From a virus (lineage: Duplodnaviria > Heunggongvirae > Uroviricota > Caudoviricetes), in the IMG/VR virus record IMGVR_UViG_2778261164_000008: DNA of 24,703 bases; one strand, given 5' to 3'. Below the pieces are notes generated by a model that saw only the letters and a list, made by a program, of their open reading frames with translations, searched no databases and was not told the origin of the DNA. Positions 1 through 23,567 of this stretch are shown piece by piece (position 1 is the stretch's first letter; the number at the start of each line of letters is the position of its first letter). The translations under genes and the position numbers were made by a program.

Positions 1-1053
1 TTACGGGGTAATGCCAACCGCTGCCGCCACTTTGTCGCCACTTGGCAGCGTTGCCAGAGGATTGAAACGGAGCGCCGTTTCTAGATGATCCGGTGCCAGA
101 TGTGCGTAACGCATAGTCATTTTTATATCGTGGTGTCCGAGAATTTTTTGTAAGGCCAGAATGTTTCCACCCGACATCATGAAGTGCGCCGCAAACGTAT
201 GGCGCAGAACGTGTGTGAGTTGACCGCGAGGGAGCACGATAGACGTTTTTTCCATCACGGATAAAAATTGAAAATAGCAGTCTGTGAAGAAATTGAACCC
301 ATCAAGCGCCATGATCTCTTCGTAAAGCTCTTTACTGATAGGGATGCTTCTGTTTTTCTTCCCCTTCGTTCTGACAAAGGTAATTCGGTATTTGGTCACC
401 TGTGAGCGGGTAAGATTTACGGCTTCACGCCAGCGTGCGCCTGTGCTTAAGCATATCTTAACTACCAGTGCCAGAATTGGGTCCTGACGTTTGCAATCAG
501 CCAGCAATTCAACAATCTGCTCATGGGTAAGCCATGCCATCTCTTTTTCTGCGATGGTGAATTTTCGCATGTTCTCCAGTGGGTTCGGATACGACCATTC
601 GCCCAGACGGGATAGTTCGCTAAAAACACTACTTAGATAGCTTTGCTCTAGGTTAATGGTGACCGGGCTTGCTCCTTTCTTCCATTTCTCGCTGAAGTAG
701 ATCTCGCCTGTCAGGCGTTTATCTCGATAGTGGGCAAACATTTTAGAGGTGAGATCGGTTGCAAGAGGATTGCCCAGAGCGTCAACCATCAACAGCAATT
801 TGTCATAGACATGCTGCCCAGCTGTCAGAGATTTACCATGTAGTTTGAACCATAGCTCAACCACGTCTTTCAGTGTTCGACGATCCACTGATTCACCCAG
901 CCAGGGCTTTGCTTCGGTTTCTTCCATCGTGTGGCGCTCAAAAGCCAGTGCTTCGCCTTTGGTAGCGAATTGTTTACGCACACGACGCCCACTTCGTCCG
1001 GCGGGGTAACATTCGCAAAGCCATTTCCCTGTGGTTAGTTTTCGTACTGCCAT
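1..1053 (-). CDS. int: Phage integrase, tyrosine recombinase (P2/186 Int family)
   Basis: 350-aa ORF with ATG at 1051-1053 and stop at 1-3. N-terminus MAVRKL...KQFATKGEALAFE and C-terminal LTHVLRHTFAAHFMMSGGNILALQKILGH...MTMRYAHLAP match the 186/P2 integrase pattern as I recall it (R..H..R..Y catalytic region). Confidence 0.9.
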   Translation of the reverse strand: MAVRKLTTGKWLCECYPAGRSGRRVRKQFATKGEALAFERHTMEETEAKPWLGESVDRRTLKDVVELWFKLHGKSLTAGQHVYDKLLLMVDALGNPLATDLTSKMFAHYRDKRLTGEIYFSEKWKKGASPVTINLEQSYLSSVFSELSRLGEWSYPNPLENMRKFTIAEKEMAWLTHEQIVELLADCKRQDPILALVVKICLSTGARWREAVNLTRSQVTKYRITFVRTKGKKNRSIPISKELYEEIMALDGFNFFTDCYFQFLSVMEKTSIVLPRGQLTHVLRHTFAAHFMMSGGNILALQKILGHHDIKMTMRYAHLAPDHLETALRFNPLATLPSGDKVAAAVGITP

Positions 1054-1077
1054 AAAAAGCCCTCATATCAGAGGGCT
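1054..1077 (-). terminator. Possible intrinsic terminator hairpin after the cargo gene (minus strand)
   Basis: Minus strand reads agccctc-tgatat-gagggct followed by TTTTT, lying about 60 nt after the stop of the 1136..2812 gene and immediately before the int ATG. Confidence 0.35.
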
Positions 1078-1135
1078 AAATTTAACTGTATATGTAACCA
1101 GTAATCAATGTGTGATTACTATGAAACATACATTG

Positions 1136-2812
1136 CTAAGCAACATGTAGTTCATCGTTGGCGGAAGTGGCTGCTTTGCGCTCCTGCTCAATAGCTAGAG
1201 ACTCTCTATATTCTTTCGCCTCTGCAAACATTGTCCAGTGGGCGTTGATGTTCATGTCTTCAATAACTGATTTGATTTCTTTTAAATTTACGTTAAAAAA
1301 CTCTTTTCGTGAGTTAATTTTATTGACCTGCTTTTCGTTGAAAACTTTATGCAGATGGTTTTCTAATGATGGTGCATCATCACTATAAATCATCGCATGA
1401 ACATCGAACGAAAAAGGAACACTAGCATCTCCGAGTTCACGAACACGATCAAGTGGTTCAAGGCGGCGTGTCATTCCAATTTTATATACATCTTCGCCAA
1501 ATGAACCAATATTACTAATGATATAGACGTGGCCTGATCTGGTTTGTTGAGCCATAGAAATAGCTCGTTGATTTTTAGCTTCAGCTTCTTCATATTTTAA
1601 CTGTAGTTCAGCTATTTTTTGCTCTAAAGCTAAGCGTTGTTCTTCATTTGCAAGCATAAGTTCTTTCGTTGCTTTATTTATAGCTTGCTGAATAGCTTTT
1701 TCTTCTTTTTCAGCTTCTTTTATCGCTTTTTCATATTCCCTACGAGCTCTTTCCTCTTCACGAAGCTGTTCTTTAATCCTTCTTTGCTCTTCTTTTTCTT
1801 CGAGCATAATTTCATTAACTGCTACACCCCATTTTAGCTCGTTGAGTCTTGCCTGAAGATAGATGTCACTTATTTTTGCGGATCTAAAGGCAGAGCCATT
1901 GTAATTTACTAGTTGAAATGCATCTTTTATTTCTTGGGAAAGTTTTCCAAAATTGTTGTGTTTGACTTTTGATAAAATACTGTCAACTCTTCCATTGAAG
2001 GCATCCAAAACAAAGTTTATGGCAGTATTACGCCTGTTTTGCTCAACATAATCACACGAAGCAGCTTTATTAGTTTTTATTAATGATTTGGTTAACTCTC
2101 TGGCTTTTTGTAATTCCTTGCCTGCATCTGTAAATTCATAATTTTCTGCCAGCTCATCAAGTACACTACGGTTAGGGATGATCCATTCATCACCATAACC
2201 TTCAATTTTATTTTTCATTGATTTTGCAACTGCTTCATATTTTTCTGCAAACTCTTTAGCTTCATATGCTGAACCAGCAATCTCCTTTGCTCTTTCTTCT
2301 GCATCAGAAATAATTTTTACTGCATTGTCATTAGCATTTGAGATTAGCTCATTTGCTTTATTATTAGCATTATCAAGACGTTCTTTGGCTTTCAGGCGTG
2401 CATCGCGAGCGTCTTTGGTGATTGCTATAGCTTCGCTATTAGCGTTGCTTATTGTCATCTGAGCTTGATAATTTGCTTCGTTTACTGTTTTAGCCGCCTT
2501 AATTTGGGCTTCATCTATTTTTTGCTTGGCTATTGAGTCCGCATTTTTTATCTTATTCTCTGCATCCATTACTGCGCTGTGCAATTCTTCGTATTGCCAC
2601 AATGGTGCTGCTCGCCCTTCAAGCTCTGATAATTCTCGTACGGTCTGTGCTAGTTTTTCTTGATTTTCAATCAGTTGGTTAGAAAGGGCTATGTTGTTAG
2701 CTGTCAGGTTATCTATAGCCGCTTTGTGTTTTTTACTTTGTTTAAATAATATTACAGCTAGAACAGGGGCGAGAAATGCTAATAAGAGTATAACGATGGC
2801 AAATGAATTCAT
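1136..2812 (-). CDS. Membrane-anchored coiled-coil protein with C-terminal T5orf172/GIY-YIG-like domain (DUF4041-like architecture); cargo gene
   Basis: 558-aa ORF, ATG at 2810-2812 with an AAGGA Shine-Dalgarno about 8 nt upstream on the minus strand. Hydrophobic N-terminus (MNSFAIVILLLAFLAPVLAVILF), long K/E/A-rich coiled-coil-like middle, C-terminal GHVYIISN...YKIGMTRRLEPLDRVRELG resembling the T5orf172/MUG113 GIY-YIG-like motif. Visibly AT-rich relative to flanking phage genes. Confidence 0.8.
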   Translation of the reverse strand: MNSFAIVILLLAFLAPVLAVILFKQSKKHKAAIDNLTANNIALSNQLIENQEKLAQTVRELSELEGRAAPLWQYEELHSAVMDAENKIKNADSIAKQKIDEAQIKAAKTVNEANYQAQMTISNANSEAIAITKDARDARLKAKERLDNANNKANELISNANDNAVKIISDAEERAKEIAGSAYEAKEFAEKYEAVAKSMKNKIEGYGDEWIIPNRSVLDELAENYEFTDAGKELQKARELTKSLIKTNKAASCDYVEQNRRNTAINFVLDAFNGRVDSILSKVKHNNFGKLSQEIKDAFQLVNYNGSAFRSAKISDIYLQARLNELKWGVAVNEIMLEEKEEQRRIKEQLREEERARREYEKAIKEAEKEEKAIQQAINKATKELMLANEEQRLALEQKIAELQLKYEEAEAKNQRAISMAQQTRSGHVYIISNIGSFGEDVYKIGMTRRLEPLDRVRELGDASVPFSFDVHAMIYSDDAPSLENHLHKVFNEKQVNKINSRKEFFNVNLKEIKSVIEDMNINAHWTMFAEAKEYRESLAIEQERKAATSANDELHVA

Positions 2813-2832
2813 TTTAAAATCCTTTTACTATA

Positions 2833-3429
2833 TTAATTCGAGACTATTGTACTTCTTATACAAGCAACCACTTCAATATCAGAAAATGCACATTCAAAGC
2901 TATTCTCTGCTGTTGTAATTTTAATCATTCCTTTAGGAAGCCTTGTGATTTTTCGAATGGAATAGGTTCCGTCGATATTGATTAACCAGTTTCCATCAAG
3001 TACTTCAGAAAATTTTTGATCACAAATGTATGTGACGAGTCCATCCTGAACAACAATTGGTGATGAAAGGTTTGCAGGAAGAAATGATGAATCGAAGACA
3101 TATGAACCGTCTTCAATCATTTTGCCTGCGGCAAGGCGAAACTTAACAAGCTCTTCTGTAGCTGCTGTCAGCGAGCTTTGCTTAAGGCCTTGTCCGGTAG
3201 TTAACCATTTGAGGGAGGTTCCTGTTTCAAGAGCACATTGGATTATCCAGTCAGCAGGAAATGTATCCCGCAAATACCTGTTCGCTAGTGTGCTTTTTGA
3301 TACTTCCAAGTGATCAGCTAAAGCCTGTCGTGTCGTAAAGCCATAGGCTTCGACTAATCGCTCAATCGCAGCCTTACCACCTTTATTGGGATTTATTTTG
3401 ATCTCACTTGGGTACTTTGATGTTGACAT
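2833..3429 (-). CDS. cI: Phage immunity repressor CI (186-type)
   Basis: 198 aa, ATG at 3427-3429. N-terminal segment ...VEAYGFTTRQALADHLEVSKSTLANRYLRD...CALETGTSLKWLTTGQG resembles the 186 CI HTH region as I recall it; C-terminal FECAFSDI also similar. Divergent from apl/cII as in the 186 switch. Confidence 0.8.
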   Translation of the reverse strand: MSTSKYPSEIKINPNKGGKAAIERLVEAYGFTTRQALADHLEVSKSTLANRYLRDTFPADWIIQCALETGTSLKWLTTGQGLKQSSLTAATEELVKFRLAAGKMIEDGSYVFDSSFLPANLSSPIVVQDGLVTYICDQKFSEVLDGNWLINIDGTYSIRKITRLPKGMIKITTAENSFECAFSDIEVVACIRSTIVSN

Positions 3430-3451
3430 ATCTCTTTTGCGATCCTAGTAT
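3423..3451 (+). promoter_or_regulatory. Candidate rightward lytic promoter pR (sigma70-like)
   Basis: TTGACA at 3423-3428, 17-bp spacer, TAGTAT at 3446-3451, directed toward apl/cII and overlapping the cI start codon. Confidence 0.5.
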
Positions 3452-5352: not shown

Positions 5353-5579
5353 TGGCTGATGCAATGGATCTCGTACAGCAGCGCGTTGAAGAAGAACGCC
5401 AGCGCCATATCCGTGCAGCCCGTGCCAAATCACCGGGCGTGTCACGCGTACTTTGCATTGAATGTGAAGCGCCAATTCCGCCAGCACGACGCCGCGCCAT
5501 TCCGGGAGTGCAGCTTTGCATTACCTGTCAGGAAATCGCAGAACTGAAAGGCAAACATTACAACGGAGGTGCTGTATGA
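5352..5579 (+). CDS. TraR/DksA-family C4 zinc-finger protein
   Basis: 75 aa with CIECEAPIPPARRRAIPGVQLCITCQ (CxxC-N17-CxxC), typical of phage TraR-like proteins found upstream of the replication genes in P2-like phages. Confidence 0.8.
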   Translation: MADAMDLVQQRVEEERQRHIRAARAKSPGVSRVLCIECEAPIPPARRRAIPGVQLCITCQEIAELKGKHYNGGAV

Positions 5580-6433
5580 GCACCATCCTGAAATGGGCGG
5601 GAAATAAAACCGCCATTATGCCAGAACTGAAAAAATACCTTCCTGCTGGCCCGCGACTGGTTGAACCTTTCGCGGGTTCCTGTGCTGTGATGATGGAAAC
5701 GGATTATCCCAGCTATCTGGTTGCGGATATTAATCCTGATTTAATCAACCTCTATAAAAAGGTTGCCGCTGATTGTGAATCGTTTATATCTCGCGCCAGA
5801 GTTTTATTTGAGATCGCAAACAGGGAGGTGGCTTATTACAACATAAGGCAGGAGTTTAACTGCTCAACTGAAATTACTGATTTCATGAAAGCGGTATATT
5901 TCCTGTATCTCAATCGTCACGGTTACCGTGGTTTATGTCGCTATAACAAGAGCGGGCATTTCAACATTCCCTACGGTAATTATAAAAATCCGTATTTCCC
6001 TGAAAAAGAACTTCGCACATTTGCAGAAAAAGCCCAGCGAGCAACGTTTATCTGCGCCAGCTTTGATGAAACGCTGGCGATGTTGAAGGCGGGAGATGTG
6101 GTGTATTGCGATCCGCCATATGACGGTACGTTTTCCGGCTATCACACTGATGGTTTCACTGAAGATGACCAGTATCACCTGGCATCCGTTCTTGAACATC
6201 GGTCATCAGAAGGACATCCGGTCATTGTTTCTAACAGTGACACATCCCTGATCCGTTCGCTGTATCGCAATTTTACTCACCACTATATCAAGGTAAAACG
6301 CAGCATCGGTGTGGCAGCTGGCGAGGGTAAATCAGCAACAGAAATCATTGCTGTTTCCGGGCCGCGCTGCTGGATGGGATTTGATTATTCGCGTGGCGTG
6401 GATAGTTCTGCCGTGTACGGAGTACGTGCATGA
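5576..6433 (+). CDS. dam: DNA adenine methyltransferase (Dam-like, GATC-type N6-adenine MTase)
   Basis: ATG at 5576 with GGAGGT RBS at 5565-5570. N-terminal LKWAGNK...EPFAGS (AdoMet-binding motif) and catalytic DPPY at CDPPYDGTF. Stop overlaps the gene A start (ATGA). Confidence 0.9.
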
Positions 6434-8844
6434 GTCATGCCGATATGAACAACTGCTGCGGCTTTAACGAGGCTGCCGCAGCATTCTCATGGAACAGCCC
6501 GAAAAAGGCCATTAACCCTTATCTGGACCCGGCGGAAGTTGCGCCGGTTTCTACGCTTTCAAACCTGATCACTCTGTACGCTGCCGATAACGAGCAGGAA
6601 CAGTTGCGCCGCGAGGCACTGAGTGATCAGGTCTGGGAGCGTTATTTCTTTAATGAATCACGTGATCCTGTCCAGCGCGAAATGGAGCAGGATAAGCTCA
6701 TTAGCCGGGCAAAGCTGGCGCATGAGCAGCAGCGTTTTAATTCAGACATGGTCATTCTGGCGGACGTCAACGCCCAGCCTTCCCATATCAGCAAGCCGCT
6801 GATGCAACGTATTGAATACTTCAGCAGCCTGGGCAGGCCAAAGGCTTATTCCCGCTATTTACGTGAGACGATTAAGCCATGTCTGGAACGACTGGAGCAT
6901 GTACGCGACAGTCAGCTATCTGCATCTTTTCGCTTTATGGCAAGCCATGAAGGGCTGGACGGCCTGCTGATCCTGCCTGAAATGAGTCAGGATCAGGTGA
7001 AACGCCTGTCCACCCTGGTAGCTGCGCATATGAGTATGTGCCTTGATGCAGCTTGTGGTGATTTGTATGCCACCGATGACGTTAAGCCAGAAGAAATCCG
7101 CAAGACATGGGAAAAGGTGGCAGCGGAAACCCTGCGTCTGGATGTCATCCCACCTGCGTTTGAGCAACTCCGTCGGAAAAGAAACCGCCGTAAACCCGTG
7201 CCCTATGAACTCATTCCGGGTTCGCTGGCGCGTATGTTGTGCGCCGACTGGTGGTATCGGAAATTATGGAAGATGCGTTGCGAATGGCGGGAAGAGCAGT
7301 TGCGCGCTGTTTGCCTGGTCAGCAAAAAAGCATCTCCTTATGTCAGCTATGAAGCCGTGATGCATAAACGTGAGCAGCGCCGTAAGTCGCTGGAGTTTTT
7401 CCGTTCTCATGAACTGGTGAACGAAGACGGCGACACGCTGGACATGGAGGATGTGGTAAACGCCAGCAGCAGCAACCCTGCGCATCGCCGCAATGAGATG
7501 ATGGCCTGTGTTAAAGGTCTGGAGCTTATCGCGGAAATGCGCGGTGACTGCGCCGTTTTCTACACTATCACCTGTCCGTCGCGTTTCCATTCCACGCTAA
7601 ATAACGGCAGACCAAACCCGACCTGGACAAACGCGACGGTAAGACAAAGCAGCGATTATCTGGTCGGCATGTTTGCTGCATTTCGTAAGGCGATGCACAA
7701 AGCCGGGTTGCGCTGGTATGGCGTGCGGGTGGCTGAGCCGCATCATGATGGCACAGTTCACTGGCACCTGTTGTGTTTCATGCGCAAAAAAGACCGCCGT
7801 GCCATCACTGCATTACTGCGTAAGTTTGCCATCCGTGAAGACCGCGAGGAGCTGGGCAATAACACTGGGCCGCGCTTTAAGTCTGAGTTGATTAACCCGC
7901 GCAAAGGAACGCCGACAAGCTACATCGCGAAATATATCAGTAAGAACATTGACGGTCGTGGTCTGGCTGGCGAGATCAGCAAGGAAACGGGTAAATCTCT
8001 GCGTGATAACGCTGAATACGTGAATGCCTGGGCGTCTCTGCATCGTGTTCAGCAATTCCGCTTCTTTGGTATTCCGGGGCGTCAGGCTTACCGTGAACTT
8101 CGCTTGCTGGCTGGTCAGGCGGCAAGGCAACAGGGTGACAAAAAAGCAGGTGCGCCGGTACTGGATAACCCGCGTCTTGATGCCATTCTGGCTGCTGCTG
8201 ATGCTGGTTGTTTTGCCACCTACATCATGAAGCAGGGCGGCGTACTGGTTCCCCGTAAATATCACCTCATCAGAACCGCTTATGAAATCAACGAAGAGCC
8301 GACCGCCTATGGCGATCACGGCATTCGTATTTATGGCATCTGGTCACCCATTGCAGAGGGCAAGATCTGCACTCATGCAGTGAAGTGGAAAATGGTTCGT
8401 AAAGCCGTTGACGTTCAGGAGGCGGCAGCCGACCAGGGCGCTTGCGCCCCTTGGACTCGTGGCAATAACTGTCCCCTTGCTGAAAATTTGAACCAACAGG
8501 AGAAAGATAAATCAGCTGATGGGGACCCCAGAACGGACATTACCAGCATGGATGACAAGGAGTTGCACGATTACCTGCACAGTATGAACAAAAAAGAGCG
8601 CCGGGAACTGGCTGCAAGGTTACGCCTGGTGAAACCGAAACGGCGTAAAGACTACAAACAGCGAATTACAGACCATCAGCGACTGCAGCTCGTGTATGAG
8701 CTGAAGTCCAGAGGATTTGATGGCAGCGAGAAAGAGGTCGATTTACTCCTTCGCGGAGGCAGTATTCCGTCAGGAGCAGGCCTGCGTATCTTCTATCGGA
8801 ACCAGCGTTTGCAAGAAGATGATCAGTGGCGGAACCTGTATTAA
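6430..8844 (+). CDS. A: Replication initiation endonuclease gpA (rolling-circle, P2 A family)
   Basis: 804 aa; contains [10 protein letters not shown] (HxH metal-binding motif of the rolling-circle initiator) and a YIAKYISK tyrosine region; size and position match P2/186 gene A. Confidence 0.9.
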
Positions 8845-8997: not shown

Positions 8998-9186
8998 ATG
9001 CAGGACTATTTTTTGGAGTCTTTGAAGCTCCAGCGCATTGATTTTTTTCTTAAGCTTGTAGCGGCTAGTGAGTGTAGTGATGAAGAGAAGGGGCTGGCTC
9101 TGCAGTGGGTTTCTGAATTGACTGATGAACTCATGGCAAAAATCAGAACCCACGAATACAACCGCTCAATGGATGTCATCAGCTGA
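8998..9186 (+). CDS. Small SOS-regulated protein (possibly Tum-like antirepressor N-terminal part)
   Basis: ATG at 8998 preceded by GGAGGAAAG; 62 aa; directly downstream of the LexA box, in the position of the 186 tum operon. Confidence 0.5.
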   Translation: MQDYFLESLKLQRIDFFLKLVAASECSDEEKGLALQWVSELTDELMAKIRTHEYNRSMDVIS

Positions 9187-9196
9187 GGTGACTTTT

Positions 9197-9430
9197 ATGC
9201 GCATTGAAATAATGATCGATAAAGAGCAGAAGATTAGCCAGTCTACCCTGGACGCCCTTGAATCCGAGCTTTACCGCAATCTGCGCCCCCTGTATCCCAA
9301 AACGGTAATTCGCATTCGCAAAGGTAGCTCTAACGGTGTGGAACTAACCGGACTGCAACTGGACGAAGAAAGAAAACAAGTGATGAAAATTATGCAGAAG
9401 GTGTGGGAAGACGACAGCTGGCTGCATTAA
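9197..9430 (+). CDS. DinI-like protein
   Basis: ATG at 9197 with GAGGTG RBS; 77 aa MRIEIMIDKEQ...LDALESELYRNL...KVWEDDSW resembles E. coli DinI in length and pattern (MRIEV...ETWE..W). Confidence 0.8.
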   Translation: MRIEIMIDKEQKISQSTLDALESELYRNLRPLYPKTVIRIRKGSSNGVELTGLQLDEERKQVMKIMQKVWEDDSWLH

Positions 9431-9757: not shown

Positions 9758-10576
9758 ATGCGAGTTAATTACGATGTTATTATCAAAAGCGGCGATGATG
9801 AAGTAGATATGGAATACGGTCTCGACACGCTTGCAGGAACTGCAGAGGTTACTTGCTTGTTGGCGGAGGCTATACTTAGGAAAGTAATAATAAAGCGCCG
9901 CTCTCATGTAAATCCTGCAAGGGCTGTACTCAAGAGGAATTTCACCGGTTCTTATGGTCAAAATTTTGACTTGGTTATTAATGATGCTGAACTGGTATCA
10001 GAACTTCGCAAAATATCTAAACCAGTATTTAATGAAGTGATGAGTTTCTTTATTTCGCAATCATTATATTTAGAGAGTCGCGAACTTTCCAATGAAGCGG
10101 AAGAAGTAGTTAAAGGTTTATCGGATATTGAGGATGAGTTGATAGGTCGTATTCGAGCTCCTCTAAAAAGAATGCATGAAATTAATCTCAAAAAAAACTA
10201 TAATATCGAGTTAAACTTTAAACAGCGTGCCCATGATAAGAAAAAAGTAATTGAATTAGATACATCTACTGCAACAAATTTATTCACATCACGTGTTTTA
10301 AAAAAGACTGAAGTAATCAGGGCTTATATTACAAGATTTAATGCTCGCACTGGCAATGGTAGGCTTGTTCTTGAGGGCGAAAATGATACGGTGGCATTTG
10401 GGTTTTATAGCCCCTTACGTGTCATCATTCCAGCTCAAAAAAGAATGATTTCGGCTAACTTACATGTAAATAATCCGCCTTCCACTGCTGGCTATATTTA
10501 TCTTGAACTGACTGTAAGTCGGGTAATAATTAACAGTGGGGAAACTGTGAAATATTTAGTGCATACGGTGCAGTAA
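9758..10576 (+). CDS. Hypothetical soluble protein, gene 1 of AT-rich two-gene cargo cassette
   Basis: 272-aa ORF, ATG at 9758 with AAGGAAAG RBS; AT-rich; no family recognised by eye. Confidence 0.7.
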   Translation: MRVNYDVIIKSGDDEVDMEYGLDTLAGTAEVTCLLAEAILRKVIIKRRSHVNPARAVLKRNFTGSYGQNFDLVINDAELVSELRKISKPVFNEVMSFFISQSLYLESRELSNEAEEVVKGLSDIEDELIGRIRAPLKRMHEINLKKNYNIELNFKQRAHDKKKVIELDTSTATNLFTSRVLKKTEVIRAYITRFNARTGNGRLVLEGENDTVAFGFYSPLRVIIPAQKRMISANLHVNNPPSTAGYIYLELTVSRVIINSGETVKYLVHTVQ

Positions 10577-10577
10577 G

Positions 10578-11324
10578 ATGTTAAAAATAATTTGTTTAGC
10601 TCTCATAATAATAGTTTTGGGGGTTTATTGTATTAAGTTTGGCCCCTGGTACTTAAGTACTCAAGATGCTGATGTTTGGGGGCAATTTGGGGACTTCATG
10701 GGTGGGGTCCTGAATCCTATACTAAGTTTTATCTCGATTTGCCTGCTGATTCGCTCTGTAACTTTACAAGTGCAGTCTAACTCAACATTGAAACAAGAGA
10801 TAAAAAGACAAGAGTTACTTGAAGATTACAAAAAATTTGAAGTGAGGTTTTTCTGTCTAATTGAATCTCAAGATTCTAATTATAATAAATTGCGTATTGT
10901 AATCGGTAATGGAGCAGATAATGATGATGAAAGTAAAGGGGGGGGGACCAAAGAACCTACACTTATTGAGTATAGATCTAATAATGCTATAACTTTCATT
11001 GATGATAACTTGAGCATCTTGGTTAGAGCTGGAATAGAAAAGAAAAGAATCATTGCATGGTTGGAAAGTTTAGATGTTGATGATCATTTTTTCTCTTTGG
11101 TAAGAAGATTTTATCTTTTGGTGAAGTTGATAGATGATAAAGTTGAAAGTGAAAAAAAAGCTGAGCAATATGAGCTGTTAATAAATATGACTGATGAAAA
11201 GCTTTTGACTATGATTGTTATTCTTTGTGAGTATTTTGATTGGGCAAATGTTTTGTATATTAAAAATAGTGGAATCATAGAGCAGGCTAAAATGGATGAC
11301 TATATTTCTAATTATAGAAACTAA
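10578..11324 (+). CDS. Hypothetical membrane protein (2 predicted N-terminal TM helices), gene 2 of cargo cassette
   Basis: ATG at 10578, 1 nt after the upstream stop (translational coupling). N-terminal hydrophobic segments LKIICLALIIIVLGVYCIKF and GGVLNPILSFISICLLI; the rest is charged and soluble-looking. Confidence 0.7.
   Translation: MLKIICLALIIIVLGVYCIKFGPWYLSTQDADVWGQFGDFMGGVLNPILSFISICLLIRSVTLQVQSNSTLKQEIKRQELLEDYKKFEVRFFCLIESQDSNYNKLRIVIGNGADNDDESKGGGTKEPTLIEYRSNNAITFIDDNLSILVRAGIEKKRIIAWLESLDVDDHFFSLVRRFYLLVKLIDDKVESEKKAEQYELLINMTDEKLLTMIVILCEYFDWANVLYIKNSGIIEQAKMDDYISNYRN
10938..10946 (+). repeat. G9 homopolymer tract inside the membrane-protein gene
   Basis: ggggggggg at 10938-10946 (encodes KGGG) inside an otherwise AT-rich gene. 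Confidence 0.9.
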
Positions 11325-21139: not shown

Positions 21140-21718
21140 ATGAACGCTCAACTAACAGAAATCATGCGCCTTATCACCAATCTGATCCGCACTGGTGTAG
21201 TCACCGAAGTGGACCGGGAAAACTGGCTTTGTCGGGTGAAAACGGGCGACCTTGAAACCAACTGGATTAACTGGCTGACACTGCGCGCGGGCAAATCGCG
21301 CACCTGGTGGAAACCGTCTGTGGGTGAGCAGGTTGTGCTGTTCAGCCTTGGCGGCAATCTGGAAACCGCGTTTGCCCTGCCTGCGGTCTACTCAAACCAG
21401 TTTCCGCCACCTTCAGACTCTGAGGACGGTAACGTGACGGAATACCCAGACGGTGGCTGGTTTGAATACGAACCCGCCACCGGGCGCTGGTATGTCAGGG
21501 GCATCAAATCCATGGTCATTGAGGCCACTGACAACATCACCCTGAAAACCAGTGAGTTTGTACTGGAGGCTGACCGCACGCGCATTAACAGCGAAGTGGT
21601 GATCAATGGTGGCGTTACCCAGGGCGGCGGTGCAATGAGTTCTAACGGAATCGTGGTTGATACGCATCAGCATACAGGCGTCCTGAAAGGCGGTGATACC
21701 ACCGGAGGCCCGGTATGA
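21140..21718 (+). CDS. V: Baseplate assembly/spike protein gpV
   Basis: Start taken as ATG 21140 (MNAQLTEIMRLITNLIRTG...); the ATG at 21110 is an alternative. WWKPSVGEQVVLFSLGGNLETAF and C-terminal HQHTG...GGDTTGGP match P2 gpV as I recall it. Confidence 0.85.
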   Translation: MNAQLTEIMRLITNLIRTGVVTEVDRENWLCRVKTGDLETNWINWLTLRAGKSRTWWKPSVGEQVVLFSLGGNLETAFALPAVYSNQFPPPSDSEDGNVTEYPDGGWFEYEPATGRWYVRGIKSMVIEATDNITLKTSEFVLEADRTRINSEVVINGGVTQGGGAMSSNGIVVDTHQHTGVLKGGDTTGGPV

Positions 21719-22074
21719 CGCTTTATAGCGGGATGAACAATACCAGCGGTAAAGCCATTACTGATATTGACCATCTGCGCCAGTCGGTGCGGGACATTTT
21801 GCTGACGCCGCAGGGTAGCCGCATTGCCCGTCGGGAATATGGCTCCCTGCTGTCGGCACTGATAGACCAGCCACAAAATCCGGCGTTACGCCTGCAGGTC
21901 ATGTCGGCAGTGTATGTGGCGCTGAGTCGCTGGGAGCCACGGCTGACGCTGGATTCCATCACCATCAACAGCAACTTTGACGGTTCAATGGTGGTGGAGC
22001 TGACCGGGCGGCGTAATAACGGTGTGCCTGTTTCCCTTTCCGTATCAACAGGAGCAGAGAATGGCAGTGATTGA
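21715..22074 (+). CDS. W: Baseplate assembly protein gpW (GPW/gp25 family)
   Basis: 119 aa; ATG overlaps the V stop; size and synteny match P2 gpW. Confidence 0.9.
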   Translation: MTLYSGMNNTSGKAITDIDHLRQSVRDILLTPQGSRIARREYGSLLSALIDQPQNPALRLQVMSAVYVALSRWEPRLTLDSITINSNFDGSMVVELTGRRNNGVPVSLSVSTGAENGSD

Positions 22075-22969
22075 CCTTTCGCAGTTGCCTGCGCCGCAGA
22101 TTGTGGATGTGCCCGACTTTGAGACGCTGCTTGCCGAACGCAAGGCAGAATTTGTGGCGCTTCATCCGAAAGATGAACAGGAGGCTGTGATGCGTACGCT
22201 GGAACTGGAATCTGAACCCGTCACCAAATTGTTGCAGGAGAACGCTTACCGTGAGTTGCTTCTGCGCCAGCGCATTAACGAAGCCGCGCAGGCTGTGATG
22301 GTGGCTTACGCTATGGGCAGCGATCTTGACCAGCTCGCTGCCAACTACAACGTGAAACGCCTGACGGTGACGCCTGCTGATAATGACGCTGTGCCGCCCG
22401 TTGCAGCTGTGATGGAAAGCGATGAAGCGTTACGCCTGCGTGTGCCTGCAGCCTTTGAAGGGCTTTCAGTTGCGGGGCCAACTGCAGCTTATGAATTTCA
22501 TGCCCGAAGCGCCGACGGTCGGGTGGCGGATGCCAGTGCAACCAGCCCGGCACCTGCAGAGGTGGTGCTGACTGTCCTTAGCCGCGAAGGCGATGGAACT
22601 GCAGAAAAAGATCTGCTGGACGTGGTGGAAAAAGCTCTGAACAGTGAGAACGTCCGCCCGGTGGCTGACCGTCTGACGGTTCGCAGCGCAGAAATCATCC
22701 CGTATCGCGTGGAAGCCACCATTTTTCTCTATCCGGGACCGGAAGCAGAGCCGGTAATGGCAGCGGCAAAAGCCAGCCTGCAGAAGTACATCGCCAGTCA
22801 GACGCGTCTTGGTCGGGATATTCGCCGTAGCGCCATCTTTGCCGCCCTGCATGTTGAGGGTGTGCAGCGTGTGGAGCTGGCTTCTCCTCTGGCGGATGTG
22901 GTCCTGAACAAAACACAGGCGGCATCATGTACGCAGTGGAGCGTAACCAACGGAGGAACGGATGAATAG
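22061..22969 (+). CDS. J: Baseplate assembly protein gpJ
   Basis: ATG at 22061 with GGAG RBS at 22051 (MAVIDLSQLPAPQIV...); 302 aa, matching P2 gpJ size. Confidence 0.9.
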   Translation: MAVIDLSQLPAPQIVDVPDFETLLAERKAEFVALHPKDEQEAVMRTLELESEPVTKLLQENAYRELLLRQRINEAAQAVMVAYAMGSDLDQLAANYNVKRLTVTPADNDAVPPVAAVMESDEALRLRVPAAFEGLSVAGPTAAYEFHARSADGRVADASATSPAPAEVVLTVLSREGDGTAEKDLLDVVEKALNSENVRPVADRLTVRSAEIIPYRVEATIFLYPGPEAEPVMAAAKASLQKYIASQTRLGRDIRRSAIFAALHVEGVQRVELASPLADVVLNKTQAASCTQWSVTNGGTDE

Positions 22970-23567
22970 TCTGCTGCCACCGGGTTCAACACCACTGGAG
23001 CGCCGACTGGCGCAAACCTGCAGCGGGATTTCTGATCTGCAGGTGCCGCTTCGTGACTTGTGGAATCCGGCAACCTGCCCGGTCAGTTTCCTGCCTTATC
23101 TCGCCTGGGCGTTCTCTGTGGATCGCTGGGACGAGGGCTGGACAGAAAGCGTCAAGCGCCAGGTGGTGAAGGATGCTTTTTATATTCATCAGCATAAAGG
23201 GACCACCAGTGCCGTGCGTCGGGTGGTGGAGCCGTTCGGCTTTCTGATCCGCATTATTGAGTGGTGGCAGACCGGAGAGACACCGGGCACGTTTCGTCTG
23301 GATATCGGCGTGCAGGAACAGGGCATCACTGAAGATACCTATCTGGAACTTGAGCGACTGATAAGCGATGCCAAACCATGTAGCCGTCACATGATCGGCA
23401 TGTCCATCAACCTGCAGACCAGCGGCCCGCATTGGGTGGGAGCCGCCAGCTATCTTGGCGAAGAAATCACGATCTATCCGTATATCAACGAAACAATTAT
23501 TTCCGGCGGCACCGCGCATGAAGGCGGGGCGGTCCATGTTATTGACACAATGAGAGTGAATCCATGA
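22962..23567 (+). CDS. I: Tail protein gpI
   Basis: 201 aa, ATG at 22962 with GGAGGAACGG RBS; synteny J-I-H. Confidence 0.85.
   Translation: MNSLLPPGSTPLERRLAQTCSGISDLQVPLRDLWNPATCPVSFLPYLAWAFSVDRWDEGWTESVKRQVVKDAFYIHQHKGTTSAVRRVVEPFGFLIRIIEWWQTGETPGTFRLDIGVQEQGITEDTYLELERLISDAKPCSRHMIGMSINLQTSGPHWVGAASYLGEEITIYPYINETIISGGTAHEGGAVHVIDTMRVNP

Follow-up and report, generated by a model that had tools for sequence, protein, structure and literature searches.

A probable SNIPE (PD-Lambda-1) family defence nuclease gene carried between cI and int of a 186-like prophage

The analysed window is a stretch of 24,703 nt from a virus of the Caudoviricetes (IMG/VR record IMGVR_UViG_2778261164_000008), with positions counted from its first letter. 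It carries a 186-type repressor gene cI, an ORF encoding 558 residues and the integrase gene int, all on the minus strand (Table 1). The CI product matches PF07022 (8e-32) and PF16452 (3.5e-27) in a profile search, and shares 32% identity with the CI of phage 186. Inside the 3′ end of cI (2876-2846), TTGAAG and TACAAT can be seen by eye 19 nt apart, a spacing beyond that of a good sigma-70 promoter. The cI stop codon TAA (2835-2833) is separated from the ATG of the ORF (2812-2810) by exactly 20 nt, in which the AAGGA motif stands 7 nt ahead of the ATG. This spacer is too small for a promoter or a terminator, and an identical 20-nt spacing is found in Klebsiella and Citrobacter prophages. Downstream of the ORF, int follows after a gap of 82 bp. 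An earlier reading of the letters alone (hereafter the sequence-only reading) had placed the gene 20 bp after the cI stop and upstream of int on a common strand, which is exactly the layout found here. It had also stated that P2 and 186 have no gene at this position. Indeed, cI (22433-23011) and int (21423-22433) of 186 abut, and in P2 a gap of 115 bp, in which no gene is annotated, separates C from int.

Table 1. Features of the cI-int interval and of the encoded protein
Feature	Position	Strand	Details
Tyrosine integrase gene int	1..1053	-	350 aa; PF24624 and PF00589
Structured int leader, two stem-loops	1054..1135	-	terminator scan, folding
SNIPE/PD-Lambda-1 family gene	1136..2812	-	558 aa; ATG start; stop codon included
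GIY-YIG (T5orf172/MUG113) nuclease domain	1238..1537	-	aa 426-525
Long charged linker helix	1538..1837	-	aa 326-425; AF2 helices 316-387 and 390-421
DUF4041 domain (Pfam PF13250, now named SNIPE)	1838..2203	-	aa 204-325; Pfam match 267-322
Ala/Lys/Glu/Asn-rich helical stalk, variable N-terminal "adapter" region	2204..2743	-	aa 24-203
Single N-terminal transmembrane segment, FAIVILLLAFLAPVLAVILF	2744..2803	-	aa 4-23; predicted N-out, C-in
cI-to-gene spacer	2813..2832	-	20 nt; carries Shine-Dalgarno AAGGA (2824-2820)
186-type CI repressor gene	2833..3429	-	198 aa; opens the leftward lysogenic unit

The sequence-only reading had described the ORF product as an N-terminal membrane anchor, a very long coiled-coil-like region and a C-terminal T5orf172 (GIY-YIG-like) module. 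The anchor is borne out by a single predicted transmembrane (TM) segment, the sole strongly hydrophobic stretch of the protein, with a 19-residue Kyte-Doolittle (KD) mean of 3.16. Its short N-terminal flank (MNS, three residues) and basic C-terminal flank (KQSKKHK) fit the positive-inside rule, and the topology is therefore predicted as N-out and C-in. The segment is kept in the Klebsiella and Citrobacter orthologs. Moreover, a hydrophobic 19-mer (KD >= 1.6) lies within the first 120 residues in 118 of the 150 nearest cluster representatives, with a median start at residue 3.

An AlphaFold2 (AF2) model with a mean pLDDT of 79, computed from an alignment that left out the PhiR26_1 sequence, displays continuous helices at residues 2-203 (pLDDT about 70-90) and 316-421, between which the DUF4041 region folds into a helical globule (217-315). 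The wording coiled-coil-like is thus fair for these helices, but an oligomeric coiled coil would be putative. In the Pfam search the C-terminal module gave matches to MUG113 (3.7e-20, aa 443-520) and T5orf172 (3.2e-17, aa 427-520), and DUF4041 was matched at 3.1e-12 (46.6 bits against a cut-off of 27), all exceeding the Pfam cut-offs and in agreement with the module as first described. Matches to DivIVA/Wag31 (1e-4), V-ATPase E and SMC models of NCBIfam fell far under their cut-offs, and were read as helical composition rather than homology. Searching the PDB by sequence profile turned up no relative of solved structure; the matches obtained, to ATP synthase subunit b (6e-4) and BRIL fusions, were weak and reflected composition. 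The nuclease domain contains the GIY-YIG motifs GHVY (427-430) and YKIG (443-446), together with Arg449, Arg450, Glu484 and Asn497; residues Gly427, Tyr430, Gly446, Arg449, Arg450, Glu484 and Asn497 are invariant across 54 homologs. Comparison with the Klebsiella and Citrobacter orthologs indicated purifying selection (dN/dS <= about 0.1, with dS saturated), and the DUF4041 domain is 90-92% identical across genera.

Beyond single domains, the protein matches phrog_1847 at 6.6e-133 and the PADLOC model of PD-Lambda-1, PDLC03976, at 2.4e-120 (400.7 bits), with residues 106-550 aligned on profile positions 36-481 of 491. A second PADLOC model, PDLC03977, scores 7.9e-117, and the two together span residues 106-551; the prototype SNIPE reaches 658 bits on the former. 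PD-Lambda-1 of E. coli ECOR26 was reported earlier by Vassallo et al. 2022 (PMC9519451), and the PD-Lambda-1/SNIPE system is an experimentally proven anti-phage system with the same architecture as the present protein (PMC13190303). Profile-profile alignment of the family against ECOR26 SNIPE by hhalign yielded a probability of 100% and an E-value of 5e-80 (aa 194-546 on 113-477). BLASTP against the "PD-lambda-1" CDS of PhiR26_1 gave 50% identity over aa 265-555 (E 5e-77). The nine residues that the Nature paper on SNIPE names all agree with this CDS; it is therefore the characterized SNIPE or identical to it at all nine positions. Both proteins share the order of a single TM segment, a helical region, DUF4041, a linker helix and the GIY-YIG nuclease, with 50% identity over the C-terminal 293 residues. 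The linker (aa 326-425) aligns with SNIPE 255-355, the catalytic Glu414 of SNIPE corresponds to Glu484, and the other GIY-YIG residues are shared as well. Both are single-gene systems carried by prophages: no partner gene is conserved, the neighbors being cI and int in E. coli, Klebsiella and Citrobacter, and others in L018 and the lambdoid PhiR26_1. RefSeq names the product of this very gene "DUF4041 domain-containing protein" and, in newer records, "SNIPE associated domain-containing protein". Taken together, the ORF probably encodes a defence nuclease of the SNIPE (PD-Lambda-1) family that a 186-like (Peduoviridae) prophage carries as cargo between cI and int, an assignment that comes from sequence comparison. 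The earlier suggestion of a prophage-encoded defence or exclusion gene gains from the PADLOC and hhalign matches to a proven anti-phage family, and also fits the other defence genes, Old and PDC-S20, found in the cI-int slots of sister prophages.

T5orf172 was originally described as a phage DNA-binding domain, and an ortholog is annotated as "chromosome segregation ATPase" in two phage records. The protein might accordingly serve the life cycle of the prophage itself, as a homing or recombination GIY-YIG nuclease, a DNA-binding regulator or such an ATPase, rather than defence. We consider this extremely improbable: a membrane anchor is unexpected in a homing or regulatory nuclease, a Walker A motif is absent and no ATPase family is matched. 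In particular, an SMC-like ATPase was rejected, as the protein has no [AG]xxxxGK[ST] motif and scores 15.5 bits on SMC_prok_A against a cut-off of 729, a match of the coiled-coil type. Furthermore, the gene is missing from 186, P2 and most sister prophages with the same int, which marks it as dispensable cargo.

SNIPE is an inner-membrane nuclease that cuts phage DNA during injection, and it acts as a direct defence in which the infected cells survive (Saxton et al. 2026, Nature, PMC13190303). Its topology was mapped experimentally, and the predicted TM segment and basic cytoplasmic flank of the present protein agree with it (PMC13190303). By analogy, inner-membrane anchoring would hold the nuclease away from the chromosome (PMC13190303). 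Upon infection by another phage, DUF4041 would bind both the incoming DNA and the tape measure protein (TMP) complex where injection takes place, and the DNA would be cleaved by the GIY-YIG domain while it is entering. The infected cell would then survive, by direct defence rather than abortive infection, and the DNA of the resident prophage would be left untouched. Defence, membrane localization and nuclease activity are all extrapolated here from a homolog whose C-terminal half shows 50% identity. A different outcome, in which the nuclease is freed or activated on infection, degrades host and phage DNA alike and kills the cell, appears very unlikely. It would agree with the toxicity and chromosome cutting of SNIPE deprived of its TM segment (PMC13190303) and with the presence of GIY-YIG/T5orf172 domains in other candidate systems, such as PDC-S57 (4.5e-20, nuclease domain only). 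However, the full-length match is to PD-Lambda-1, for which direct defence with cell survival was shown, and the TM anchor is intact and conserved.

Direct defence as in SNIPE leaves the target range to be considered, as the two proteins differ in several respects. The present protein has 558 residues compared with 500 in ECOR26 SNIPE, and its first ~193 residues, which include a longer stalk, are unrelated in sequence by BLASTP and hhalign. Moreover, four positions of DUF4041 and the linker that tune TMP interaction are changed, namely Glu223 to Ser292, Trp257 to Lys327, Lys305 to Gln375 and Thr319 to Asn389. Given the unalignable residues 1-193 and the altered TMP-tuning positions, neither association with ManYZ nor siphovirus specificity can be assumed for this protein. 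It is conceivable, though on balance doubtful, that a member of the same family and fold has another specificity, its TM-plus-stalk N-terminus docking to an inner-membrane component other than ManYZ; the phages excluded would then be different ones, possibly non-siphoviruses or relatives of the host prophage. [quoted passage not shown] The N-terminal helix also evolves faster, with a dN 2-3 times that of the core domains. Nevertheless, wild-type SNIPE stops many siphoviruses independently of ManYZ via DUF4041 (PMC13190303), a domain that is conserved in the present protein. An altered specificity would refine the assignment to SNIPE-type direct defence more than contradict it.

The gene is clearly coupled to cI. 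A scan for consensus promoters on the minus strand from the cI start to the ORF start found none, nor was a terminator-like site found in the 20-nt spacer; such a scan could overlook a weak promoter inside the AT-rich 3′ end of cI. The 20-bp spacing, the conserved gene order and the failure to find any promoter-like site lead us to infer that the gene is co-transcribed with cI. It would be translated from its own Shine-Dalgarno sequence on the cI transcript of the lysogenic promoter and produced constitutively in lysogens, resembling the placement of rexAB downstream of cI in lambda. The lambda exclusion genes rexA-rexB are co-transcribed with cI from PRM, and the Rex system is abortive and membrane-depolarising. 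The likeness lies in a defence gene that immediately follows the immunity repressor gene and would hence be expressed in every lysogen; in contrast, the proteins and the mechanism are unrelated, and for the present gene co-transcription is deduced from the arrangement.

The relation to int is different. The int leader is strongly structured, with a minimum free energy of -32.1 kcal/mol and a z-score of -4.95. Its second stem-loop (1077-1058) is GC-rich and followed by U5, with the int AUG at the end of the U run. This hairpin is kept whatever cargo sits upstream, with one C-to-U change that preserves pairing. It is a candidate terminator, attenuator or element occluding the ribosome-binding site (RBS). 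In the proposed model, the conserved hairpin past the gene would probably terminate or attenuate transcription, or mask the RBS, before int. The gene and int may thus lie on separate transcripts. The lysogenic operon of 186 is annotated as pL to cI-int, and the sequence-only reading had likewise embedded the gene in a cI-int operon. Its coupling to cI stands, but a common transcript with int is less certain given the terminator-like hairpin in the 82-bp spacer, so that the term cI-int operon is possibly inaccurate for this clade.

Of 5426 complete E. coli genomes, 164 (about 3%) carry the cI-gene-int module, and in these the gene always occupies this locus; the module also occurs in prophages of Klebsiella and Citrobacter and in two records of Peduoviridae phages. 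The int/cI/cII backbone as such is shared by roughly 1300 E. coli genomes. The gene itself is spread across prophages of Enterobacteriaceae, including E. coli, Klebsiella, Citrobacter, Salmonella and Enterobacter. Comparison of the int-cI interval among related prophages, which the sequence-only reading had proposed as a check, revealed conserved flanks (int with its leader, the HTH region of cI, apl and cII) around variable contents that are often defence-related. Homology of the sister prophages from the int side extends up to window positions 1115-1135. Their slots hold Old, a PDC-S20 KAP NTPase with a 60-aa ORF, a 329-aa gene of unknown function or a 63-aa ORF in E. coli; the Old homolog of E. 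coli EcPF20 scores 777 bits in PADLOC, and L018 bears a 6-kb island in the slot. The region is AT-rich, as had been pointed out: the GC content of the ORF is 0.37 (GC3 0.27), compared with 0.51 in the remaining window and 0.49 in int, and cI is low too at 0.40 (GC3 0.32). The low-GC block as a recent insertion was rejected, since the module is collinear, with ~77-78% nucleotide identity and an equally low GC content, in the Klebsiella and Citrobacter prophages. The acquisition is therefore old.

Variable defence cargo between the repressor and integrase genes is also known from P2-related phages, where a cI-int hotspot was described in the K139-like Vibrio phages (Rousset et al. 2022, PMC9122126). 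For P2-like prophages, a minor "integrase-to-primase" hotspot was coarsely defined as int to gpA (PMC13586616). As presented in the relevant sections of these two accounts, the cI-int slot belongs to Vibrionaceae and the enterobacterial hotspot is given only as int-gpA; those sections do not mention a conserved int-leader hairpin bounding the slot. The prototype SNIPE is flanked by ren and rha in a lambdoid prophage, in contrast to the cI-int position of the present gene in a 186-like myovirus prophage. The P2 genes old, tin and fun(Z), classical defence genes of lysogenic conversion, are likewise AT-rich cargo of P2-family prophages that excludes other phages, but they occupy the gpA-portal and tail-region hotspots and encode unrelated proteins.

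In summary, the gene is not of a new kind. The family, its mechanism and the P2-related cI-int hotspot are already published, and the gene is recognized both by the usual defence annotation tools (PADLOC/DefenseFinder) and in present RefSeq names. With the family mechanism published in 2026, its modest value lies in the context and little in discovery. The locus also shows that enterobacterial 186-like prophages use the interval between cI and int as a defence slot, with the conserved, structured int leader as its boundary. We also put forward, tentatively and as an unlikely case, that the 558-aa enterobacterial subfamily is a functionally distinct SNIPE variant. Its adapter, made up of the TM segment and a stalk of ~180 residues (some 27 nm long as a single straight helix), would dock to another entry route than ManYZ and protect against phages that the prototype fails to stop, with expression tied to the repressor transcript and insulated from int by the hairpin. 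If so, the conserved terminator or RBS-masking hairpin would mark out a "plug-in" slot for defence genes that is general to 186-like prophages. Since the protein is a naturally occurring SNIPE variant whose N-terminal adapter differs, it could serve to test the published idea that the N-terminus sets phage specificity.

Judged by family profiles, the window ORF can be assigned to the SNIPE/PD-Lambda-1 family and lies within a known kind of prophage defence slot. Pfam placed DUF4041 at residues 267–322 of the window protein (3.1e-12), T5orf172 at residues 427–520 (3.2e-17) and MUG113 at residues 443–520 (3.7e-20). PADLOC matched PD-Lambda-1 over almost the full length (residues 106–550, 2.4e-120, 400.7 bits), and PHROGs placed the protein in phrog_1847 (6.6e-133), a group of unknown function. 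The T5orf172/GIY-YIG-like and DUF4041 domains expected by the sequence-only reading were thus both found, and its proposal of a defence gene gains support and is sharpened to SNIPE/PD-Lambda-1 by the family match. PD-lambda-1 was first found in the selection of Vassallo et al. (2022) in ECOR26 (PMC9519451); its 1503-nt gene encodes DUF4041 at residues 197–252 and T5orf172 at residues 357–448 (Vassallo supplement, PMC9519451). Saxton et al. (Nature 2026, PMC13190303) renamed it SNIPE; the protein crosses the inner membrane once, with its N-terminus in the periplasm. [quoted passage not shown] SNIPE without the TM segment is toxic to the chromosome, and induction of a resident prophage is unaffected by SNIPE (PMC13190303). 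It protects cells from lambda and from many siphoviruses but gives no protection from BASEL myoviruses or podoviruses, and its homologues are most variable in the N-terminal region, a proposed specificity adapter (PMC13190303).

The record of the lambdoid phage PhiR26_1 contains a 500-aa CDS labelled 'PD-lambda-1', which we took as the characterised SNIPE because it has, at the stated positions, each of the nine residues that the Nature paper names (E414, E223, W257, N250, L253, E264, K305, I308 and T319). The window protein shares 50% identity with this CDS across residues 265–555 (E 5e-77), and hhalign of a 54-homologue profile against it aligned residues 194–546 (probability 100%, E 5e-80). 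E414 of SNIPE corresponds to E484, which is invariant throughout the family alignment together with G427, Y430, G446, R449, R450 and N497. The window protein has all the sequence-testable defining features of the family. Residues 1 to ~193 gave no alignment to SNIPE, and positions that tune tape-measure recognition in SNIPE are altered (E223 to S292, W257 to K327, K305 to Q375 and T319 to N389).

The only hydrophobic segment of the window protein spans residues 4–23 (KD19 3.16), with three residues before it and the basic stretch KQSKKHK after it. It is the predicted N-terminal TM anchor, as had been proposed, and the predicted topology is N-out/C-in, as mapped for SNIPE. An AlphaFold2 model computed from a 54-sequence alignment (mean pLDDT 79.2, pTM 0.45) comprises an unbroken helix (2–203), a helical globular domain (217–315), two further helices (316–387 and 390–421), an alpha/beta domain (427–520) and a last helix (528–557); the first helix and the pair at 316–421 would account for the long coiled-coil-like region described earlier. 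In the wider family, 3368 clusters (50% identity) match at E ≤ 1e-3, and 118 of the 150 nearest representatives have a hydrophobic 19-mer in the first 120 residues. The label 'chromosome segregation ATPase' in ON470620.1 (vB_EcoM-813R9, L002:3932-5608) and OM835953.1 (Klebsiella phage KP12) is unsupported, since a search of the window protein found no Walker A motif; it is a misannotation due to coiled-coil-like composition.

The window starts at the left end of a 186-like (Peduoviridae) prophage, with cI, the window ORF and int all on the minus strand. As the sequence-only reading had stated, the gap from the cI stop TAA (2835-2833) to the ORF ATG (2812-2810) is exactly 20 nt, and P2 and 186 have no gene in this position: cI abuts int in 186, and 115 bp separate C from int in P2. 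The spacer contains AAGGA 7 nt 5' of the ATG, and no promoter-like or terminator-like sites were found on its minus strand. The described AT-richness is also evident, with GC 0.37 and GC3 0.27 in the ORF versus GC 0.49 in int and 0.51 in the remainder of the window; cI is likewise low (GC 0.40, GC3 0.32). All factual points of the sequence-only reading were thus borne out.

Features of the window and of related loci (L013–L015 and L017, sister E. coli prophages; L016, E. coli NCTC8623 locus; L018, more distant 186-like prophage)
Feature	Position	Strand	Remarks
int	1-1053	-	Int_N + Phage_integrase
Gene-int leader	1054-1135	-	82 nt
Window ORF	1136-2812	-	558 aa
cI	2833-3429	-	198 aa; Phage_CI_repr 8e-32, Phage_CI_C 3.5e-27
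TTGACA-17-TAGTAT	3423-3451	+	promoter-like; overlaps cI start
apl/cox-like gene, then cII, then fil		+	cII: CP76, 4e-42
Dam-like adenine methyltransferase, D12-class	5516-6433	+	PF02086, 2.7e-75; early operon, just 5' of gpA
gpA	6430-8844	+	
DinI-like ORF	9125-9430		just 5' of the ORF pair
272-aa ORF	9758-10576	+	gpA-portal interval
248-aa ORF	10578-11324	+	gpA-portal interval
Portal gene		+	farther along than gpA
P2 Old homologue (EcPF20)	L017:6127-7896		cI-int slot; PADLOC 777 bits
KAP-type NTPase + 60-aa ORF (PM4-5)	L015:1433-2764		cI-int slot; PDC-S20, 569 bits
329-aa protein, unknown function (strain 98201)	L014:1440-2429		cI-int slot; phrog_2628
63-aa ORF alone (S40)	L013:1542-1733		cI-int slot
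DUF4917/PDC-S21 (SIR2-like) gene	L016:436-1419		int-to-attachment-site interval
Region of the multi-gene island	L018:3533-11054		CI-int; 6 kb

Among 5426 complete E. coli genomes, 164 carry the window gene, single-copy and chromosomal every time, and the 4.3-kb int-gene-cI-cII locus was found in an equal number (coverage ≥ 80%). RefSeq names it 'DUF4041 domain-containing protein' or, more recently, 'SNIPE associated domain-containing protein'. Two Peduoviridae phages carry an orthologue: vB_EcoM-813R9 at 99.8% identity, whose record is an incomplete genome with adjoining E. coli genes, and Klebsiella phage KP12 at 97.8%. Further orthologues, 558 aa long and 83–87% identical, are present in Klebsiella, Citrobacter, Salmonella, Enterobacter, Raoultella and Lelliottia. 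The loci examined in Klebsiella and Citrobacter have the same order, cI (198 aa)-20 nt-gene-82 nt-int, and are collinear with the window over 4.3 kb at ~77–78% nucleotide identity. Among these orthologues dS has reached saturation, with dN/dS at ~0.1 or lower; the DUF4041, linker and nuclease domains evolve 2–3 times more slowly than the TM segment, N-helix and C-terminal helix. The gene is GC-poor there too (0.38–0.41 versus 0.51–0.56 in adjoining genes). Given the saturated dS, the low dN/dS and the low GC elsewhere, sequence comparison identifies the window gene as an old, selected component of the prophage lineage; a recent insertion is ruled out by the collinear loci, the saturated dS and the low GC across genera.

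About 1330 E. coli genomes have parts of the int/cI/cII backbone in common with the window. Comparing int-cI intervals, as had been suggested, revealed different contents in sister prophages that share the chromosomal site adjoining rcdA: Old, PDC-S20, the 329-aa protein or the 63-aa ORF. The L018 island includes a homologue of SNIPE with 53% identity to the window protein, besides a 57-aa ORF, a protein of 521 aa whose ZorA/MotA-like match is weak (5e-5), two ORFs of 260 and 44 aa and an M78 peptidase + HTH pair. A cI-int defence hotspot was earlier reported for K139-like P2-related phages (Rousset et al. 2022, PMC9122126), and a minor 'integrase-to-primase' hotspot is described as holding 8% of P2-borne defence systems (NAR 2026, PMC13586616). 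The NCTC8623 gene exemplifies an 'int-att' minor hotspot. Homology to sister prophages covers int and its leader up to window 1115-1135 and restarts at ~3177-3247, in the HTH half of cI. This half is ~81% identical to sister alleles; the C-terminal half (2833-3176) is below blastn detection against them and as GC-poor as the SNIPE gene (~0.33–0.37). Overall, the window cI shares 55% amino-acid identity with the S40 allele; where the slot carries Old or the 329-aa gene, CI is longer (312 aa). Joint exchange of the cargo and the C-terminal domain of the repressor is one possible explanation; simple high divergence of cI alleles in that half is another.

In the 186 annotation, the lysogenic promoter pL leads to cI-int; the window TTGACA-17-TAGTAT site has the same relative position as 186 pR. 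Given the 20-nt spacer, its own SD, the lack of a consensus promoter and the spacing conserved across genera, we infer that the window gene is transcribed as part of the cI transcript. Folding of the gene-int leader gives two stem-loops (MFE -32.1 kcal/mol, z -4.95). The second is a GC-rich, terminator-like hairpin with U5 after it; the int AUG closes that U-run, and the SD-like GAGGG of int is in the 3' arm of the hairpin. This hairpin is kept in all sister prophages regardless of the 5' cargo, and also in Klebsiella and Citrobacter; a C-to-U change within it keeps the pairing. In contrast, phage 186, in which cI and int abut, has no comparable hairpin. Because of the conserved GC-rich hairpin with U5 and the position of GAGGG, transcription may largely halt ahead of int, or the hairpin may mask translation of int. 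The earlier description of the gene as embedded in a cI-int operon thus holds for its probable coupling to cI but may not hold for a shared unit with int, which either role of the hairpin would place downstream under separate control. Just 5' of this structure lies a conserved TTGA(C/T)-N17-TTAAAT-like element that could be an int promoter.

Elsewhere in the window, the Dam-like gene is kept in some relatives and missing from others, such as a Klebsiella prophage; it is unannotated in the phage 186 record up to ~25.7 kb, a stretch that ends before 186 gpA. The gpA-portal interval, the classical P2 defence hotspot, contains the adjoining 272-aa and 248-aa ORFs, a possible uncharacterised defence system of two genes. 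Their matches, phrog_13337 and phrog_8999, are groups of unknown function; no Pfam domains were found in either, and the 248-aa ORF has a weak PADLOC ZorB/MotB match (3.3e-4, residues 28–80).

In summary, a SNIPE/PD-Lambda-1 gene in a prophage slot is already known rather than new, and the point of interest left in the window gene is its divergent putative N-terminal adapter.
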